Source: Sphingopyxis sp. (GTDB lineage: Bacteria > Pseudomonadota > Alphaproteobacteria > Sphingomonadales > Sphingomonadaceae). Taken from it: a stretch of 64,000 nucleotides of DNA. Below are positions 20,223-27,971 of this stretch, piece after piece; position 1 is the stretch's first letter, and the number at the start of each line of letters is the position of its first letter. A program made the position numbers and the translations under genes. A model generated the notes under the pieces. It was not told the DNA's origin, searched no databases, and saw only the letters and a list, made by a program, of their open reading frames with translations. The stretch spans positions 147,804 to 211,803 of the forward strand of contig NZ_CBDIIL010000002.1 in assembly GCF_965279725.1 (NCBI RefSeq). The letters are read 5' to 3'.

Positions 20223-21074
20223 TCAGTCCGCCAGCGACAGTATGTGCTTCGCCTGTTTCAGATGCGGCGCATCGACCATCTTGCCATCGACCTGAAGCAC
20301 CCCGACGCCCGGATTGGCGGCGAACGCATCGACGATCGCCTGCGCGCGCGCCGTTTCTTCGGCGCTGGGCGTGAAGGCGGCGTTGATCGGTTCGACCTGC
20401 GAGGGATGGATCGCCATCATCCCGGTAAAGCCGTCACGTCGGGCGCGGGCGGCGTAGGCGGCAAGGCCAGCCTCATCCTTGATCGCCGGAAATACCGTGT
20501 CGATCGCGGCGACGCCCGCTGCATGCGCAGCGAATAGCGTTAGCGCGCGGGCGACGTCATAGGGCGCGGTATAGCTGCCATCGGCTTCGCGGCTGGTGGT
20601 AGCGCCAATGGCGGCGGGTAAGTCTTCGGCGCCCCATGTCAGTCCAAGCAGGCGGTCTTTCGCCTCGCGGTAGCTGCCAAGGGTGAAGATTGCCGCGGCA
20701 GTTTCGGTAGCGATCGGCAGAATGGGAGGCAGCGACGCTTCGGCGGCGCCTTCGCTGCGCAGAATCAGGTCGAGCTGCGCGATACTCGGCGCGCCTTCCG
20801 CCTTGGGCAACATGATCGCGTCGGGCTGCGCGGCGATGATCGCGGCGATATCGGCGGCGGTCAGGTGGCCGTCGAGCGGATTGACCCGCACCAGCGTGAC
20901 CACTTCGCGTGTTCCCCCCAGATAATCGGCGATCGCATGGCGCGCCATATCCTTGTTCGCCAGCGACACCGAATCCTCGAGGTCGAGGATGATCGCATCG
21001 GCGCCCGACGCGGCTGCCTTGGCAAAGCGTTCGGGCCGGTCGCCGGGGACGAAAAGGAGGGAACGTAGTCTCAT
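20223..21074 (-). CDS. citE: CitE / HpcH-HpaI family CoA-ester lyase
   Basis: RSLLFVPGD, DLEDSV, VRVN, IATET, WGAEDL, IHPSQV, GKMVDAPH. Start set at ATG 21074. Confidence 0.88.
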   Translation of the reverse strand: MRLRSLLFVPGDRPERFAKAAASGADAIILDLEDSVSLANKDMARHAIADYLGGTREVVTLVRVNPLDGHLTAADIAAIIAAQPDAIMLPKAEGAPSIAQLDLILRSEGAAEASLPPILPIATETAAAIFTLGSYREAKDRLLGLTWGAEDLPAAIGATTSREADGSYTAPYDVARALTLFAAHAAGVAAIDTVFPAIKDEAGLAAYAARARRDGFTGMMAIHPSQVEPINAAFTPSAEETARAQAIVDAFAANPGVGVLQVDGKMVDAPHLKQAKHILSLAD

Positions 21075-21096
21075 AGGTTCAACTATGCCGGTCGTG

Positions 21097-21147
21097 TCGA
21101 GCGAAGTCGAGACACGGAAGGGGCAAACGGTTCTCGACTTCGCTCGA
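21097..21147. repeat. REP-like inverted repeat TCGAGCGAAGTCGAGA
   Basis: Perfect 16-bp inverted repeat (21097-21112 / 21132-21147) between the restored maoC stop and the citE start. Confidence 0.85.
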
Positions 21148-21160
21148 ACCGAACGCGGAT

Positions 21161-21609
21161 TTATGGTTTTCGTTGAACCAGCGTCGAACGCTCGCACTGG
21201 CAGACAAGTTCATCGCGCTGGTTGATACAGCGGTGGAGGAGGTGACGATCCCGGCATTGGGCCGCGATTTCGATTCTTTCAGCCCGATGACCTCGCTCGT
21301 CGCGCGCAGCGTGTCGCCGATAAACACCGGCTTCGGCATCACCAGCTTGTCATAGCCGAGGTTGGCGACAAGCGTCCCCAACGTCGTGTCGCCGACCGAC
21401 AGCCCGACCATCAGGCTGAAGGTGAAGGTGCCGTTGACGAGGATCTGGCCGAACTCCGACGCCTTCGCCGCTTCGACGTCGAGGTGCAGCGGCTGCGGAT
21501 TATGCGTCATCACCGTGAACAGCAGATTGTCGGTCTCGGTCACGGTACGGCGGATTTCGTGGGTCAGCGTGTCGCCGATGGTCCATTCATCGAAATATTT
21601 GCCAGCCAT
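21161..21609 (-). pseudogene. MaoC-family dehydratase with a 1-nt deletion near 21240 (pseudogene or sequencing error)
   Basis: MaoC motifs [26 protein letters not shown]. The span is 449 nt (3n-1). Restoring one base gives ...[30 protein letters not shown]. Confidence 0.85.
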
Positions 21610-21740: not shown

Positions 21741-23585
21741 CTATTCGCTCGCCGCCTCAATCCGCACCAGCAGCGCCTCAACCTGCACCTGCGCGCCCGG
21801 TTTCGCATTAAGCTCGGCCACGACGCCGTCGAACGGCGCGGTCAGGCTATGCTCCATCTTCATGGCTTCAAGGGTGAGCAGTTTCTGGCCCTTGGTCACC
21901 TTGTCCCCGGCCGCGACCTCGACCGCGATGACCTTGCCGGGCATCGGCGAGAGGATCGCGCCGTCGCCGGCGGCGGCGCCCGCGCTGGCATTGGCGCGCC
22001 ACGGCGCGAGTTGCCAGACCGAACCACCCTCAGCGACGAGCATCGCCGGCGCCGGCTGTTCGGCACCCGGGCCATGCAGTTCGACCTCGATGCGCTTGCC
22101 GTCGAGCAGGAAGGACGCCGACCGAACATCGGGCGCATTGAGGCGGAAGCCCGATTGCAGCGAGCGCGGCATCATTGCCATCGCGGCATTGGTCAGGGCT
22201 TGCTCCGACGGCACAGGTTCGGCGGTCATTGCGTCACCGTCGCGGCCGATCAGGCCGGTATCGACGGTGCCCGCGATGAAATCGGGATGGTCGAGCGCAT
22301 TGATCAAGAAAGCCGAATTGGTCTTCACCGGCCAGATCGCGCAGTCCTCGAGCATCTCCGACAATGTCAGCCGTGCTTCCTCGCGATCCTCGCCATAGGC
22401 GATGACTTTGGCGATCATGGGATCGTAGAAAGGCGAGACCTCGGCGCCTTCATAGACGCCGGTGTCGATGCGCCCGCCATCCGCCTCGGACAGCTGAAAC
22501 AGTTCGAGCGTGCCGATCGAGGGCAGGAAGCCCTTCGCCGGATCCTCGGCATATAACCGCGCCTCCATCGCCCAGCCGTCGATGCTGAGCTCACCCTGCC
22601 GCAGCGGCAACGGCTCACCGCTAGCCACGCGCAACTGCCATTCGACCAGATCGACTCCGGTAATCTCCTCGGTCACCGGATGCTCAACCTGCAAGCGCGT
22701 GTTCATTTCCATGAACCAGATGCGATCGGCGCGCAGGCCTTCGCTGGCGTCGGCGATGAATTCGATCGTTCCGGCGCCGACATAGTCGACCGCCTGCGCC
22801 GCGCGCACCGCGGCGGCGCACAGCGCCTCGCGGGTGATCTCGTCCATGCCGGGGGCCGGGGCTTCCTCGATCACCTTCTGGTGGCGGCGTTGCAGTGAGC
22901 AGTCGCGCTCGAAAAGGTGGACGACATTGCCGTGGGTGTCGCCGAACACCTGCACCTCGATATGGCGCGGGGTCAGGATATATTTCTCGATCAGCACATG
23001 GTCGTTGCCGAACGACGCCGCGGCCTCGCGCTGGCACGAGGCGAGCGCGTCGATGAAATCCGCGGGGTCATCGACCTTGCGCATGCCTTTGCCGCCGCCG
23101 CCCGCGACCGCCTTGATCAGGACGGGGTAGCCGATCTCGGCGGCTTGTTCGGCGAGGAAAGCGGGATCCTGATTTTCACCCATATAGCCAGGGGTCACCG
23201 GCACTCCGGCTTCGGCCATCAATTTCTTGGCGGCGTCTTTCACACCCATCGCGGTGATCGACGAGGGGTCGGGGCCGACCCATATCAACCCGGCGTCGAT
23301 CACCGCCTGCGCCAACGCGGCATTCTCCGACAGGAAGCCGTAACCCGGATGGATCGCCTCGGCGCCGGTCGCCTTCGCGGCAGCAATGATCTTTTCGCCA
23401 ACCAGATAGGATTCGCGCGCCGGCGACGGCCCGATATGCACCGCCTCGTCGGCCTGCCGCACATGCAGCGCCTTGGCATCGGCGTCCGAATAGACCGCAA
23501 CGGTGCGAATGCCCATCTCGCGCGCGGTACGAATGATGCGACAAGCGATTTCGCCGCGATTGGCGATGAGGAGGGAGGTGATCAT
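21741..23585 (-). CDS. liuD: 3-methylcrotonyl-CoA carboxylase alpha (biotin carboxylase plus biotin carrier)
   Basis: LIANRGEIA, HPGYGFLSEN, GGGGKGMR, RDCSLQRRHQKVIEEAP, EMNTRLQVEHPVTE, EAMKME. Confidence 0.9.
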   Translation of the reverse strand: MITSLLIANRGEIACRIIRTAREMGIRTVAVYSDADAKALHVRQADEAVHIGPSPARESYLVGEKIIAAAKATGAEAIHPGYGFLSENAALAQAVIDAGLIWVGPDPSSITAMGVKDAAKKLMAEAGVPVTPGYMGENQDPAFLAEQAAEIGYPVLIKAVAGGGGKGMRKVDDPADFIDALASCQREAAASFGNDHVLIEKYILTPRHIEVQVFGDTHGNVVHLFERDCSLQRRHQKVIEEAPAPGMDEITREALCAAAVRAAQAVDYVGAGTIEFIADASEGLRADRIWFMEMNTRLQVEHPVTEEITGVDLVEWQLRVASGEPLPLRQGELSIDGWAMEARLYAEDPAKGFLPSIGTLELFQLSEADGGRIDTGVYEGAEVSPFYDPMIAKVIAYGEDREEARLTLSEMLEDCAIWPVKTNSAFLINALDHPDFIAGTVDTGLIGRDGDAMTAEPVPSEQALTNAAMAMMPRSLQSGFRLNAPDVRSASFLLDGKRIEVELHGPGAEQPAPAMLVAEGGSVWQLAPWRANASAGAAAGDGAILSPMPGKVIAVEVAAGDKVTKGQKLLTLEAMKMEHSLTAPFDGVVAELNAKPGAQVQVEALLVRIEAASE

Positions 23586-24028
23586 GGACGATCCTCCCCG
23601 GCACGGGGAGGGGGACCATCCGCAGGATGGTGGAGGGGTACAGGCGTATTGCCTTTACGCTGCGCGATCTTCACCGCTCGCTCCGTACAAATCTCGACAA
23701 TTCGTGTCACCACTGCCTCCAAGTCATTCAAAACCGCAGTCGCGGGAACTCGCAGCACCGCTACATGCTGCGAACGTAAAAATTCGGTTCGCGCTGCATC
23801 GCTCTTCTTTGCGACCGCGCCGTCATGTGTTTGCCCATCGACCTCAATCGCCAGCCGAACGGCGGCGCAGTAGAAGTCGAGGACATAAATGCCCGCCGGA
23901 TGTTGCCGGCGATATTTGAAGCCGCCTGGCCTGTGCCGCAACGCACGCCAGAGTATCGTCTCGGGCAAACTCATCTCGCTACGCAGTTTGCGTGCGCGTT
24001 TGAGCGTGTCGCGCGGGCCGGTGATCAC
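23582..24028 (-). CDS. DUF559 / Vsr-like (very-short-patch) endonuclease domain protein
   Basis: ARKLRSEMSLPETILWRALR, YRRQHPAGIYVLDFYC, AIEVDGQTH, RTEFLRSQ..VLR. The C-terminal tail is read through the left repeat. Confidence 0.88.
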   Translation of the reverse strand: MITGPRDTLKRARKLRSEMSLPETILWRALRHRPGGFKYRRQHPAGIYVLDFYCAAVRLAIEVDGQTHDGAVAKKSDAARTEFLRSQHVAVLRVPATAVLNDLEAVVTRIVEICTERAVKIAQRKGNTPVPLHHPADGPPPRAGEDRP

Positions 24029-24083
24029 CGAGGGTGCCCCTCCACCATGCTTCGCATGGTCCCCCTCCCCGTGCCGGGGAGGA
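23592..24083. mobile_element. DUF559 nuclease cassette bounded by 47-bp inverted repeats
   Basis: Arms 23592-23638 and 24037-24083 are 44/47 identical in inverted orientation and enclose only the nuclease gene. Inserted between liuB and liuD. No target-site duplication visible. Confidence 0.7.
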
Positions 24084-24104
24084 CCGAGAGACGCCGCCGC
24101 ATCA

Positions 24105-25703
24105 TTACATCCGGAACACGCCGAAGCCGCGATCCTCGATCGGGGCGTTCAGCGTTGCGGCAAAGGCCAGCCCGAGCACGTCGCGCGTCTGGGCGGGGTC
24201 GATGATGCCGTCGTCCCACAGGCGCGCGGTGGCGTGATAAGGATTTCCTTCATCCTCATATTTCTGACGGATCGGCGCCTTGAACGCTTCAGCTTCCTCG
24301 GGCGTCCATTTGTCCGCATCGCGGTGGACGGTTGCCAGCACCGATGCGGCTTGCTCGCCGCCCATCACGCTGATCCGGCTGTTAGGCCAGCTGAACAAGA
24401 AACGCGGCGAGTAGGCGCGGCCGCACATGCCGTAGTTGCCCGCGCCGAAGCTGCCGCCGATCAGCACGGTGATCTTGGGAACCGTCGCGGTCGCGACTGC
24501 GGTGACCAGCTTCGCGCCATGCTTGGCGATCCCCTCGGCCTCATATTTGCCCCCGACCATGAAGCCGCTGATGTTCTGGAGGAAGAGCAGGGGGATGCGG
24601 CGTTGCTGGGCGAGTTCGATAAAATGCGCGCCCTTGACCGCGGATTCGCTGAACAAAACCCCATTGTTGGCGAGGATCGCGACCGGGATGCCCCAGATAT
24701 GGGCAAAACCGCACACCAGCGTGCTGCCGTAATTCGCCTTGAACTCGTGAAACTCGCTGGCGTCGACGATGCGCGCAATGACTTCGTGGACATCGTAAGG
24801 CGCGCGGACGTCGTCGGGGACGACGCCATAAAGCTCTTCGCCATCATATTTCGGCGGGCGTGGGTCCTTCAGGACAACTTCGAATCCTCTGTTTTCGCCC
24901 AGATGGCTGATGATGTCGCGGACGATGGTCAGCGCATGCTCGTCATTCTCAGCCAGATGATCGACGACGCCTGACTTCTTGGCATGGAGGTCCCCGCCCC
25001 CCAGATCCTCGGCGCTGATTTCTTCGCCGGTCGCAGCTTTCACCAGCGGCGGGCCGGCGAGGAAGATCGTGCCCTGATTGCGCACGATCACCGTCTCGTC
25101 GGACATCGCTGGCACATAAGCGCCGCCTGCGGTGCAACTGCCCATCACGCAAGCAATCTGGGGAATGCGGCGCGCCGACATGTTCGCCTGGTTGAAGAAG
25201 ATGCGCCCGAAATGATCGCGGTCGGGAAAGACTTGATCCTGGTGCGGCAGGTTAGCTCCGCCGCTGTCGACGAGATAGATGCACGGCAGGCGGTTCTCGA
25301 GCGCAATCTCCTGCGCGCGCAGATGCTTTTTCACCGTCAGCGGATAATAGGTGCCGCCCTTCACCGTCGCATCGTTGCACACGATCATGCACTGGCGTCC
25401 CGATACGCGGCCGATGCCGCAGATCAGCCCGGCGCCAGGAATCTCGCCGTCATACAGGTCGTGTGCGGCGAGCTGGCCGATCTCGAGGAACGGTGAGCCC
25501 GGATCGAGCAGTCGCTCGACGCGTTCGCGCGGAAGCAACTTGCCGCGGCTTGTATGCCGTTCACGCGACTTTTCGTTGCCGCCCAGCGCAGCCTCGGCGA
25601 CCCGCGCCCGCAGTGCGTCGTTCAGCGCGCGGTTATGCGCGACACGCGTGCGATACTCGTCGCTATCCGCGTTGATGCTGGTGCCAAGGACCGGAGCGCT
25701 CAC
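24105..25703 (-). CDS. liuB: 3-methylcrotonyl-CoA carboxylase beta (carboxyltransferase)
   Basis: [59 protein letters not shown]. Confidence 0.92.
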
Positions 25704-25849
25704 TGTCTATTCTCTCCCTGCAACTGGTTTGGAACTAGCCCGTCGCTCGTCGATTGGAAAGCGCAGCAGGCCGAAAATGGTTGGCGTTGAAACCAATTTG
25801 TCACAGGCCTATGTCTCCTGCCCTTCTTCGCAAAAACAAGGTCGTTCCC

Positions 25850-27934
25850 ATGAAAAAAGCTGTCTTCGCCATCCTGCTGTCCACCGCTGCGGTCGTCGCG
25901 GGACCGATTGCCTGCACCAGCGGCAAGGAGGAAAGCAGCGCCAGCTATACTGTCGGCACCGACCTTGGAATCAGCAAAGCAGCCATGGACACGGCCGCAA
26001 AGCCCGGCGACGATTTCTATGCCTACGCCAATGGCAATTGGGATAAGACCACCGAAATTCCGGCGGACCGCTCGTCGGTCGGTGCGTTTTATGTTGCGCA
26101 GCTCGAAACCGAAAAGCGCAACCGCGAACTGATCGACGCGATCGTCAAGGGCAACGCCGGGGCGGACACCAACGAAGGTCGCATTGCCGCTTTCTACAAC
26201 GCTTTTACCGATGTGAAGGCGATCGATGCGGCGGGCATGGCGCCCGTCGCCGCCGACCTCGCGCGCTTCGCGGCAATCAACGACAAGGCGAGTCTGTCGA
26301 AAGTGCTTGGCGAGCAACTGCGCGCCGACGTCGACCCGCTCAACGCCACCAACTTCAACACCGAGAATCTTTTTGGCGTGTTCGTGACGCAGGGATTGGC
26401 AACACCGGGCGATGTCATCCCCTATTTGCTGCAGGGCGGCATTGGATTGCCGGAACGCGAATATTATCTGTCGGCCGATCCGAAAATGGCGTCCATCCGC
26501 ACCGCCTATCAAGCCTATATCGCCAAGCTGTTGACAGCCGCGGGGCAGAGCGATGCCGCGGCAAAGGCGAAGCGCATCTATGACCTGGAGGTCAAGATCA
26601 CCAAGGCACATGCGACGCGTGAACAGAGCGAAGATTTCACCAAGTCGGCCGATGTCTGGGCCAGTGGCGATTTTGCGAAAAAGGCGCCCGGGATTGACTG
26701 GCCTGCCTTTATGAAGGCGGCGAAGCTCGATAACGCGGCCAAGTTCGGCGCCTATCACGCGAATGCCATCACCGGGCTGTCGGCGCTGGTCGCGTCCGAA
26801 CCGCTCGACGCATGGAAGGATTGGCTCGCCTTCCATCAGATCAACGGCCACGCCGGCGTTCTGCCCAGCGCCGTCGATAACGCCCATTTCGCCTTTTATG
26901 GCACGACGCTGGCGGGTACCCCTCAGCAGCGCAGCCGTGAAAAGCGCGCGCTTGACGCGGTCGATTCCTATCTGGGCGACGCGGTGGGCAAGGCTTATGC
27001 CGACAAATATTTCCCCGCCTCTGCCAAGGCCGAAGTGGGCGACATGGTGAAGAACATCAAGACCGCCTTTGCCACGCGCGTGAATACCATCGACTGGATG
27101 GCGCCCGAGACGAAAAAGGAAGCGATCAAGAAGGTCGAAACGATCGCGGTCGGCGTCGGCTACCCAGACAGCTGGCGCGATTACGGCAGCTACAGCGTCG
27201 GCGCGGACGCCTATGCCAACGAGGTTGCAGGGCAAAAGTCTGAATATGCACACCAGCTCGCCAAGATCGGCAAACCGATGGACAAGAATGAATGGTGGAT
27301 GGTTCCGCAGACGGTCAACGCCGTGAACTTGCCCGTCCAGAACGCGCTGAACTTCCCCGCCGCGATTCTGCAACAGCCCTTCTTTAACGCGAAGGCCGAT
27401 CCGGCGTTCAACTATGGCGCGATCGGCGCGGTTATCGGGCATGAGATCAGCCACAGCTTTGACAACAATGGCGCCGCGTTCGATTCCACTGGCGCGCTGC
27501 GCAACTGGTGGACCGCGGCGGATCTGGCGAAGTTCAACGCGTCGGGCGCTGCGCTTGCCGCACAATACGACACGTACAAACCGTTCCCGGACCTGGCGGT
27601 CAACGGCAAGCTGACGCTCGGCGAAAATATCGCCGACGTCGCCGGTCTGCAGGCTTCTTATGATGCTTACCGGGCGTCGTTGGGCGGCAAGGAAGCGCCG
27701 GTGATCGACGGTTTTAGTGGCGATCAGCGCTTCTTCATCGCCTATGCCCAAACCTGGGCGACCAAGATGCGCGCCGAGGCTTTGCGCGCGCGCGTCGCGA
27801 CTGATGGCCATGCGCCGGGCATGTACCGCGCGCTGACGGTGCGCAATCTCGACGCCTGGTACAAGGCGTTCGACGTCCAGCCGACCGATAAGCTGTACCT
27901 GGCGCCCGACAAGCGTGTCCGCGTCTGGGGTTGA
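25850..27934 (+). CDS. M13-family zinc metallopeptidase, secreted or lipoprotein
   Basis: Signal peptide, GDDFYAYANGNW, VNAVN, HEISH (HExxH), GENIAD, DGHAP. Start set at ATG 25850. Confidence 0.92.
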   Translation: MKKAVFAILLSTAAVVAGPIACTSGKEESSASYTVGTDLGISKAAMDTAAKPGDDFYAYANGNWDKTTEIPADRSSVGAFYVAQLETEKRNRELIDAIVKGNAGADTNEGRIAAFYNAFTDVKAIDAAGMAPVAADLARFAAINDKASLSKVLGEQLRADVDPLNATNFNTENLFGVFVTQGLATPGDVIPYLLQGGIGLPEREYYLSADPKMASIRTAYQAYIAKLLTAAGQSDAAAKAKRIYDLEVKITKAHATREQSEDFTKSADVWASGDFAKKAPGIDWPAFMKAAKLDNAAKFGAYHANAITGLSALVASEPLDAWKDWLAFHQINGHAGVLPSAVDNAHFAFYGTTLAGTPQQRSREKRALDAVDSYLGDAVGKAYADKYFPASAKAEVGDMVKNIKTAFATRVNTIDWMAPETKKEAIKKVETIAVGVGYPDSWRDYGSYSVGADAYANEVAGQKSEYAHQLAKIGKPMDKNEWWMVPQTVNAVNLPVQNALNFPAAILQQPFFNAKADPAFNYGAIGAVIGHEISHSFDNNGAAFDSTGALRNWWTAADLAKFNASGAALAAQYDTYKPFPDLAVNGKLTLGENIADVAGLQASYDAYRASLGGKEAPVIDGFSGDQRFFIAYAQTWATKMRAEALRARVATDGHAPGMYRALTVRNLDAWYKAFDVQPTDKLYLAPDKRVRVWG

Positions 27935-27943
27935 TGTCAGGGG

Positions 27944-27971
27944 AGGGCGGGGCATTATTCGGTCCCGCCCT
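27944..27971. terminator. Possible bidirectional hairpin between convergent genes
   Basis: AGGGCGGG...CCCGCCCT 8-bp stem just after the M13 stop, overlapping the next gene's end. Confidence 0.35.

Follow-up and report, generated by a model that had tools for sequence, protein, structure and literature searches.

A 64-kb stretch of Sphingopyxis DNA, called the window below and belonging to a host genome of 3.42 Mb (G000), carries a small nuclease gene of the DUF559 family that lies between two inverted arms and between the genes liuB and liuD of an operon for leucine degradation. This liu cassette is a real, selected and horizontally exchangeable unit of nuclease gene and arms. Judged by the order of their sequence blocks, the arms are better described as triplex motifs (TM) of the BoxC/PIT type than as plain repetitive extragenic palindromic (REP) hairpins. 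With rather less than even confidence, the locus is tentatively read as a module of a nuclease and its cognate repeat, in which the DUF559 gene is framed by two inward-facing TM copies that the enzyme would cut.

The cassette between liuB and liuD

The features of the locus are listed by position in the window.

21741-23585, minus strand: liuD, the alpha subunit of methylcrotonyl-CoA carboxylase (MCC), with biotin carboxylase and biotinyl domains, directly downstream of the cassette
23582-24028, minus strand: DUF559/Vsr-like PD-(D/E)XK nuclease open reading frame (ORF), 148 aa, GTG start; Pfam domain at residues 9-114 (about 23687-24004)
23589-23641, plus strand: 3' arm, downstream of the nuclease gene; hairpin 1 at 23593-23611, hairpin 2 at 23615-23631, mirror block GGAGGGG at 23632-23638
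23592-23597, minus strand: Shine-Dalgarno sequence GGAGGA of liuD, at the outer end of the 3' arm and 6 nt upstream of the liuD ATG
24034-24086, minus strand: 5' arm, upstream of the nuclease gene; hairpin 1 at 24064-24082, hairpin 2 at 24044-24060, mirror block GGAGGGG at 24037-24043
24105-25703, minus strand: liuB, the MCC carboxyltransferase (beta) subunit, directly upstream of the cassette; its stop lies about 21 nt from the 5' arm

The two arms are inverted, 53 nt long and 91% complementary, with 392 nt between them, and a core of 47 nt is identical at 44 positions. Folded as single-stranded DNA, each arm forms two hairpins with stems of 8 and 7 bp and triloops (z -3.4 to -4.5). The three differences between the arms consist of one compensatory stem pair (ATCC/GGAT versus ATGC/GCAT) and one loop base. 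Arms, triloop hairpins and compensatory mismatches had all been reported in a preliminary description of this DNA and were confirmed here. The arm motifs have no further occurrence in the window, where the chance expectation is 0.00-0.03 matches. As also described before, no target-site duplication was found at the cassette ends, and no transposase gene lies inside the cassette; the one doublet site examined has no duplication either. The earlier comparison with REP-flanked RAYT genes, in a layout lacking an HUH enzyme, holds. No Y1 transposase (PF01797) was found anywhere in this genome, and repeats driven by a RAYT were ruled out on this ground.

The label of plain REP-type hairpins did not hold, because the preliminary description had overlooked a third block. 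In each arm the order is a pyrimidine block CCTCCCC, a loop, a purine block GGGGAGG (these form hairpin 1), hairpin 2, and a terminal purine block GGAGGGG, which in both arms mirrors the stem half GGGGAGG and gives the arm the BoxC/PIT triplex-motif layout. Counted by the 7-nt blocks, loop 1 is 5 nt long, and counted within the 8-bp hairpin stem it is 3 nt. Loop 2 measures about 20-23 nt and encloses the 7-bp hairpin, whereas second loops of 2 nt occur in other arm classes of DUF559 genes in Sphingopyxis. Across loci and arm classes the mirror block varies in step with the purine block. In the 5' arm, GGAGGGG sits 8 nt before the GTG of the nuclease gene, at the position of a ribosome-binding site.

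On the minus strand the gene order is liuB, the DUF559 ORF and liuD, and the ORF at 23582-24028 is the sole plausible gene between the arms, in keeping with the preliminary description of a cassette that encloses only a nuclease gene. The DUF559/Vsr-like identity given there was upheld by a Pfam match to PF04480 (E 4.6e-27, profile positions 4-108 of 109), and the protein matches the solved structure PDB 3HRL with an E value of 1.1e-12. A comparison with the NCBIfam YcjD model yielded 81 bits, under the cut-off of that model. Pfam assigned the enclosed protein only to DUF559 and a related restriction-endonuclease-like family, and PADLOC returned weak matches only, to a methyl-directed restriction enzyme model (E 1e-6). 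All 15 columns that are conserved in at least 90% of 81 proteins from the genus are retained in the liu-locus nuclease. The retained DUF559 core comprises D-F, E-x-D-G and H together with flanking R/W/Q/D/R residues, and in the clade of this nuclease RV(P/A)A replaces RFWN. The AlphaFold model, which is of high confidence (pLDDT 90.7, pTM 0.83), has the order helices, four strands and helix.

The cassette is closely fitted to the start of liuD. The last 18 or so residues of the nuclease are encoded by the 3' arm, and the nuclease stop codon TGA (23582-23584) overlaps the liuD ATG (23583-23585). In all 13 orthologues the DUF559 frame runs through the arm and ends at a TGA that overlaps the ATG, GTG or TTG of liuD. 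The 3' arm provides the ribosome-binding site of liuD, and the nuclease ORF terminates on the liuD start codon. This donated site and the stop/start overlap, together with RNA pairing of the two arms, explain how the insertion is tolerated, and they could also have a secondary function. The locus illustrates how a module can be housed in an essential catabolic operon without breaking it.

These observations raise the question whether the arms act in RNA. In such a case the liu transcript would contain either an arm-to-arm duplex of about 50 bp or local hairpins, which would insulate or process the nuclease mRNA and set liuD translation, the link between repeat and enzyme being incidental. The minimum-energy RNA fold of the cassette does pair the two arms (z -8). 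The arm-borne GGAGGA 6 nt before the liuD start, the NTGA ending of the nuclease ORF on that start in 13 of 13 orthologues and the co-orientation of cassettes inside operons point the same way. However, such an arrangement is absent around most arm copies, which are solo or gene-less, and the NTGA overlap may be inherited, as liuD starts with NTG-ATC in empty sites too. Furthermore, mirror and purine blocks co-vary across families; as RNA is reported not to form purine-motif triplexes (PMC4666352), this favours a feature of the DNA. A role at the RNA level is therefore considered very unlikely as the main explanation of the cassette.

Gene and arms form one evolutionary unit

The association of DUF559 genes with such arms was assessed at 83 Sphingopyxis loci, of which 30 were collected by similarity to the liu-locus protein, 50 represent nearly all Pfam matches in ten genomes and three more come from this genome. 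Windows shifted by 0.7-1 kb (n = 330) served as controls. The flanking inverted-repeat score exceeds the 95th percentile of the controls at 80 of the 83 loci. A score of at least 50 is reached at 69 loci but in none of the 330 controls, whose maximum is 36. The enrichment of DUF559 genes for such flanks, raised in the preliminary description, is thus borne out. At 58 of 83 loci both flanks have the strict 7+7+7 triplex layout and turn the mirror block towards the gene, compared with 2 of 162 control windows. In the Sphingomonadales, all 77 liu-type relatives (62-78% identical) bear the same arms, so that homologues lacking the repeats were not seen in this set.

Arm type and protein type go together. 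Each of the four DUF559 genes of this genome has G-rich inverted arms, and each pair belongs to another class. When arm classes, defined by their three blocks, are placed on the protein tree, 12 changes are needed; the minimum is 8, the mean after shuffling is 39.8, and none of 200 shuffles is as low. The L class, which includes the liu locus (39 rows, at least five different loci), forms a single clade on the protein tree. In E. coli, ycjD has TM-like elements at its 3' side only and is not bracketed. One of the other DUF559 cassettes of this genome (G000 C3:67370-68375) directly follows fabI, and E. coli ycjD adjoins fabI as well, which is possibly a coincidence. A literature search on DUF559 or ycjD and triplex, inverted or extragenic repeats found no paper tying DUF559 to such repeats.

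Purifying selection acts on both gene and arms, and more strongly on the arms. In 12 intact orthologues the nuclease gene has a dN/dS of about 0.10. Between species the gene is 76% identical, whereas the 47-nt 3' arm is 97.9% identical (minimum 91.5%) with changes at loop positions only, making the arms the most constrained part of the cassette. Only one orthologue, in genome G001, has a true internal stop codon (TAG). In-frame stops that a six-frame search had flagged in many relatives were rejected as the natural stop codons of shorter proteins.

Genes of the liu type (at least 70% identity) are present in 13 of 121 Sphingopyxis genomes, always at the liuB–liuD junction. The empty liuB–liuD sites anticipated in the preliminary description were found in three congeners, in which the two genes are 5 nt apart and arms are absent. 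The exact ends of the cassette, which had been expected from the same comparison, are not definable in this way because about 21 extra nt follow liuB at occupied sites; in one relative these match the start of another small ORF that occupies the junction in other species. Across the genus the length of the junction lies between 5 nt and about 2.4 kb, and in many species unrelated small ORFs are found in it. One ORF of 316 nt is common to several species, and in one relative its first bases persist beside the cassette. What lies between liuB and liuD varies, the cassette being one occupant of this slot among others. The E2–lpd junction is likewise a variable slot, filled in this genome (G000 C2:71210-71664) by an ORF for a small membrane protein. 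At the liuD start, codons 3-7 (23570-23582) contain a pyrimidine tract, CCTCCCTCCTC, that resembles the pyrimidine block of the arm, and one species has a remnant of the liuD start joined directly to an arm. The tract could be a microhomology that favours the liuB–liuD site.

Gene and arms come and go together. Ten syntenic sites that carry a cassette in relatives have no gene in this genome; nine of them have no arms, and the tenth has a gene-less doublet of a related arm pair. Within the genus the unit is resident at fixed operon junctions. Each DUF559 subclade in Sphingopyxis corresponds to one syntenic locus, which indicates that the cassettes are resident and do not hop. They lie within operons and are co-oriented. 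Over longer times new junctions have been reached, as the same cassette lineage is found at no fewer than seven other operon junctions across the Sphingomonadales, among them ETF-QO–GHMP kinase (29 loci) and a carotenoid-type oxidase junction.

At a given site the unit has also been exchanged between lineages. The synonymous divergence (dS) of the nuclease gene is 1.26 compared with 0.47 for liuD, a 2.7-fold difference. In approximately unbiased (AU) tests, in which the clades were named after the trees had been seen, the gene and liuD trees reject each other's clades with p ≤ 0.006 in six of seven cases and p = 0.10 in the seventh. One species has a 45%-identical DUF559 gene with the same arm class at liuB–liuD, and both at the E2–lpd junction and upstream of dnaG the type of cassette differs between species, the dnaG alleles being about 50% identical. 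A gene present in all relatives and inherited vertically was accordingly not what was found. The REP-associated mobile unit of the preliminary description stands as far as block-wise presence and absence, at least seven junctions and the conflict between gene and liuD trees are concerned, but mobility is qualified by the single syntenic locus of each Sphingopyxis subclade.

Presence or absence at a single site (13 of 121 genomes) and a gene tree incongruent with its flanks, with the higher dS of the gene, would also be expected of a classical homing endonuclease gene. An empty target, either a doublet or an empty allele, would then be cut and the gene copied in by double-strand-break repair, in a cycle of invasion, fixation, decay, loss and re-invasion. 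Homing would accommodate the divergent alleles that share a junction (45% identical at liuB–liuD and about 50% upstream of dnaG), the two cassette types at E2–lpd, the one internal-stop allele, and the occurrence of doublet and cassette as alternative occupants of one site. Homing enzymes with a Vsr fold exist, for example I-Bth0305I. Yet the empty liuB–liuD sites have no arms and offer no obvious conserved target, and the gene has been under strong purifying selection through a long residence. In addition, three doublets of the same type stand unoccupied in this genome, and in no genome examined are near-identical gene copies present at several doublets. Classical homing is for these reasons regarded as improbable.

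Two regions next to the operon genes are recorded here. Downstream of liuD (20223-21609) the places expected for a crotonase and a 3-hydroxy-3-methylglutaryl-CoA (HMG-CoA) lyase are occupied by a MaoC-type (R)-hydratase and a CitE-like lyase, whose best NCBIfam similarity is to RipB/RipC. Upstream of liuB (25700-27955) long ORFs overlap on both strands: the minus-strand one has 751 aa and no Pfam or NCBIfam match, and the plus-strand one has 726 aa.

A proposed nuclease with its cognate repeat, and arms on their own

The arms of the liu type are not confined to the cassette. A genome-wide count, beyond the preliminary description, which had overlooked this family, put the family at about 23 copies in this genome. 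Among them are three doublets that face inward, enclose no gene and have arms 38-98 nt apart; further repeat families are present too. The doublets join two arm subtypes. The genome has 93 TM elements under a strict generic definition, and it has four DUF559 genes. Inward TM pairs fall into 29 pairs that are at most 150 nt apart and a remainder 362-398 nt apart, which are exactly the DUF559 cassettes, so that the gene-sized TM pairs of this genome enclose DUF559 genes only. A reversed-genome control for the TM finder gave no clean null, and the shifted-window controls were relied on instead. Doublets as plain internal-deletion derivatives of the cassette were not supported, only 3-9 nt beyond the arms being shared with the cassette.

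In gene-bearing genomes the median number of arm copies, with their own arms subtracted, is 12, compared with 2 in the 108 others (Mann-Whitney p 1e-4, uncorrected for kinship). The top counts among the gene-bearing genomes (36, 80 and 109) belong to genomes with an extra doublet inside the cassette region.

How a nuclease and its repeat might work together can be outlined as follows. The nuclease would recognise the folded arm, as a hairpin or a triplex and probably in single-stranded or supercoiled DNA, and would nick it there, as Ssn does on NTS and RAYT on REPs. A break at an arm could stimulate recombination among arm copies, which would replace, insert or erase the gene between the arms, would keep the arm copies alike, and would now and then seed gene-less doublets. 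The doublets may also be able to multiply alone.

Several observations weigh against this reading. Both the co-variation of arm and protein and the copy-number contrast are confounded by shared descent, and the clades of the tree tests were chosen with the trees in view. Thirteen of the 108 genomes that lack a liu-type gene have at least 10 arm copies. The clearest case is G007 (99% complete, 2 contigs), in which 32 arm matches make up about 22 near-identical gene-less doublets with spacers in near-identical subfamilies; its four DUF559 genes are of other classes, and its liuB–liuD site is empty. In the genome studied here, the three doublets of the same arm type lack an occupying gene, and intragenomic homing is accordingly rare at best. 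Intergenic hot spots, moreover, carry different repeat families in different species. Taken with the G007 doublets and the 13 gene-less genomes, this exchange at hot spots leaves a strict dependence of the repeat on its cognate gene unsupported. A looser link between nuclease and repeat may exist, for example shared recognition of the block core or past activity. That the nuclease cuts or spreads its own arms is a reasonable, if unproven, proposal by analogy with one clear counter-indication, G007.

The same data bear on the possibility that the repeats are autonomous. TM arms and doublets would then be intergenic elements akin to REPs or miniature inverted-repeat transposable elements (MITEs), which spread and turn over through host recombination, replication or another enzyme. 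The DUF559 protein would be carried along as a passenger, or would be an ordinary Vsr-like repair nickase whose gene became trapped between two such elements. Doublets that multiply without a cognate gene, hot spots with different repeat families across species and the ratio of about 93 strict TM elements to only four DUF559 genes all agree with autonomy, as does a Caulobacter DUF559 protein, which behaves like a repair or damage nuclease of the Vsr type, is linked to a cytosine methylase and involves no repeat (PMC12907096). Autonomy leaves unexplained why gene-sized inward TM pairs hold DUF559 genes only, why arms in a fixed orientation accompany nearly every DUF559 gene, and why deep paralogous protein clades at different loci have clade-specific arm cores. 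Autonomous repeats are consequently rated as a serious but somewhat unlikely explanation, and the nuclease-plus-repeat module is retained as the tentative preference.

A number of observations concern the sites of the doublets. The site orthologous to a TM doublet of this genome (G000 C1:787752-787889) is occupied in several species by another palindromic family (CGTCACCCCGGACTTGATCCGGGGTCC and its partner). In another Sphingopyxis genome many gene-less doublets are nested in an outer inverted repeat (tttggggtgg..cggacgttg and its complement), forming a composite palindromic element of about 190 nt that is also seen at G000 C3:1-290. Upstream of the extra doublet in the liuB–liuD region, two Sphingopyxis genomes repeat 34 nt of the liuD 5' end, and E. 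coli K-12 repeats about 42 nt of the ycjD 3' end just past the first TM-like element. Short duplications of neighbouring coding sequence like these may be traces left when an element entered its site.

Comparison with known systems

TM (BoxC/PIT) repeats have been known for about 30 years; hundreds of genomes contain them, and genome instability has been linked to them. To our knowledge they have no known enzyme or origin, and we know of almost no function assigned to DUF559, a very common nuclease family. The reproducible, oriented and co-varying pairing of DUF559 genes and TM arms provides a concrete hypothesis for both that is cheap to examine, namely that the protein binds or nicks its own arm. 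In its widest form, DUF559 proteins would be the missing partner enzymes of the BoxC/PIT/TM repeats, structure-specific nickases that recognise the folded three-block motif on either side of their own gene and, by cutting it, drive recombination through which the repeats and the cassette are spread, homogenised and exchanged. This generalisation is considered unlikely. If true, DUF559/TM would be the third independent invention of a repeat-plus-nuclease lifestyle, after RAYT/REP and Ssn/NTS.

The liu arms share with BoxC/PIT/TM repeats the succession of pyrimidine block, loop, purine block, loop and mirror purine block, the G/C-rich composition, the intergenic location with tens of copies per genome, the frequent inverted pairs of two subtypes, the variability of loci and the lack of a transposase nearby. 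Holder et al. (2015) described the TM (TMECO) repeats as abundant orphans that lack a neighbouring mobility gene; E. coli K-12 has 23 copies, with two subtypes joined in five inverted pairs (PMC4666352). That paper gives no associated gene, whereas here a DUF559 gene lies within the inward pair. Its ITxF search used loops of 1-6 nt, and it quotes loops of 0-10 nt from Hoyne et al. (PMC4666352). The second loop of the liu arm, about 20-23 nt with its own hairpin, lies outside the published range of 1-6 nt, and because this loop is long and holds hairpin 2, the liu-type arm would have escaped those search settings.

Several classes of element share single traits with the cassette. Transposons and MITEs also have inverted ends, but a target-site duplication and a transposase are absent at the cassette. 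With homing endonuclease genes it shares presence or absence at one site and a genealogy unlike that of its flanks. The very-short-patch repair nickases Vsr and VsrA belong to the same nuclease superfamily and are similarly small. Caulobacter VsrA, which has a DUF559 domain, causes methylation-dependent DNA damage in vivo (PMC12907096), and DUF559 family members can accordingly be active nucleases. Unlike Vsr and VsrA, the liu locus has no evident cytosine methylase or mismatch context and is defined by its repeat frame, which is unreported for VsrA.

REP/REPIN-RAYT systems (REPtrons, BIMEs) resemble the liu locus more closely. Their enzyme gene is single-copy, mostly vertical and flanked by inverted copies of the repeat, which also populates intergenic regions as singlets and inverted doublets, and the same pattern is seen at the liu locus. 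The RAYT is an HUH Y1 transposase, whereas the liu enzyme is a DUF559 protein in a genome without a PF01797 match. The liu arms are without the GTAG/CGTC tags of REPs, although these were not examined systematically.

The closest characterised system by layout is Ssn/NTS, in which a small single-domain nuclease gene has a hairpin repeat on both sides. The nuclease, SsnA, is a small GIY-YIG enzyme, and the flanking hairpin repeat is its single-stranded-DNA substrate (Nat Commun 2025, PMC11893778). The repeat is scattered as well, in tens to hundreds of copies, and repeat variants track nuclease variants. Its authors themselves point out the IS-like repeat-gene-repeat layout (PMC11893778). The differences lie in the fold and the repeat, GIY-YIG and a simple hairpin in Ssn/NTS compared with PD-(D/E)XK and a triplex layout in the liu module, and in the evidence, since activity on the repeat was demonstrated for Ssn and is proposed for the liu module. 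The liu module would add a PD-(D/E)XK case to the small nucleases that lie within their own target repeats, an emerging class in which Ssn has already yielded a sequence-specific cutter of single-stranded DNA. The best reading of the liu module is that of a system like Ssn/NTS or RAYT/REP, built on another fold and exchanged by recombination at its arms.

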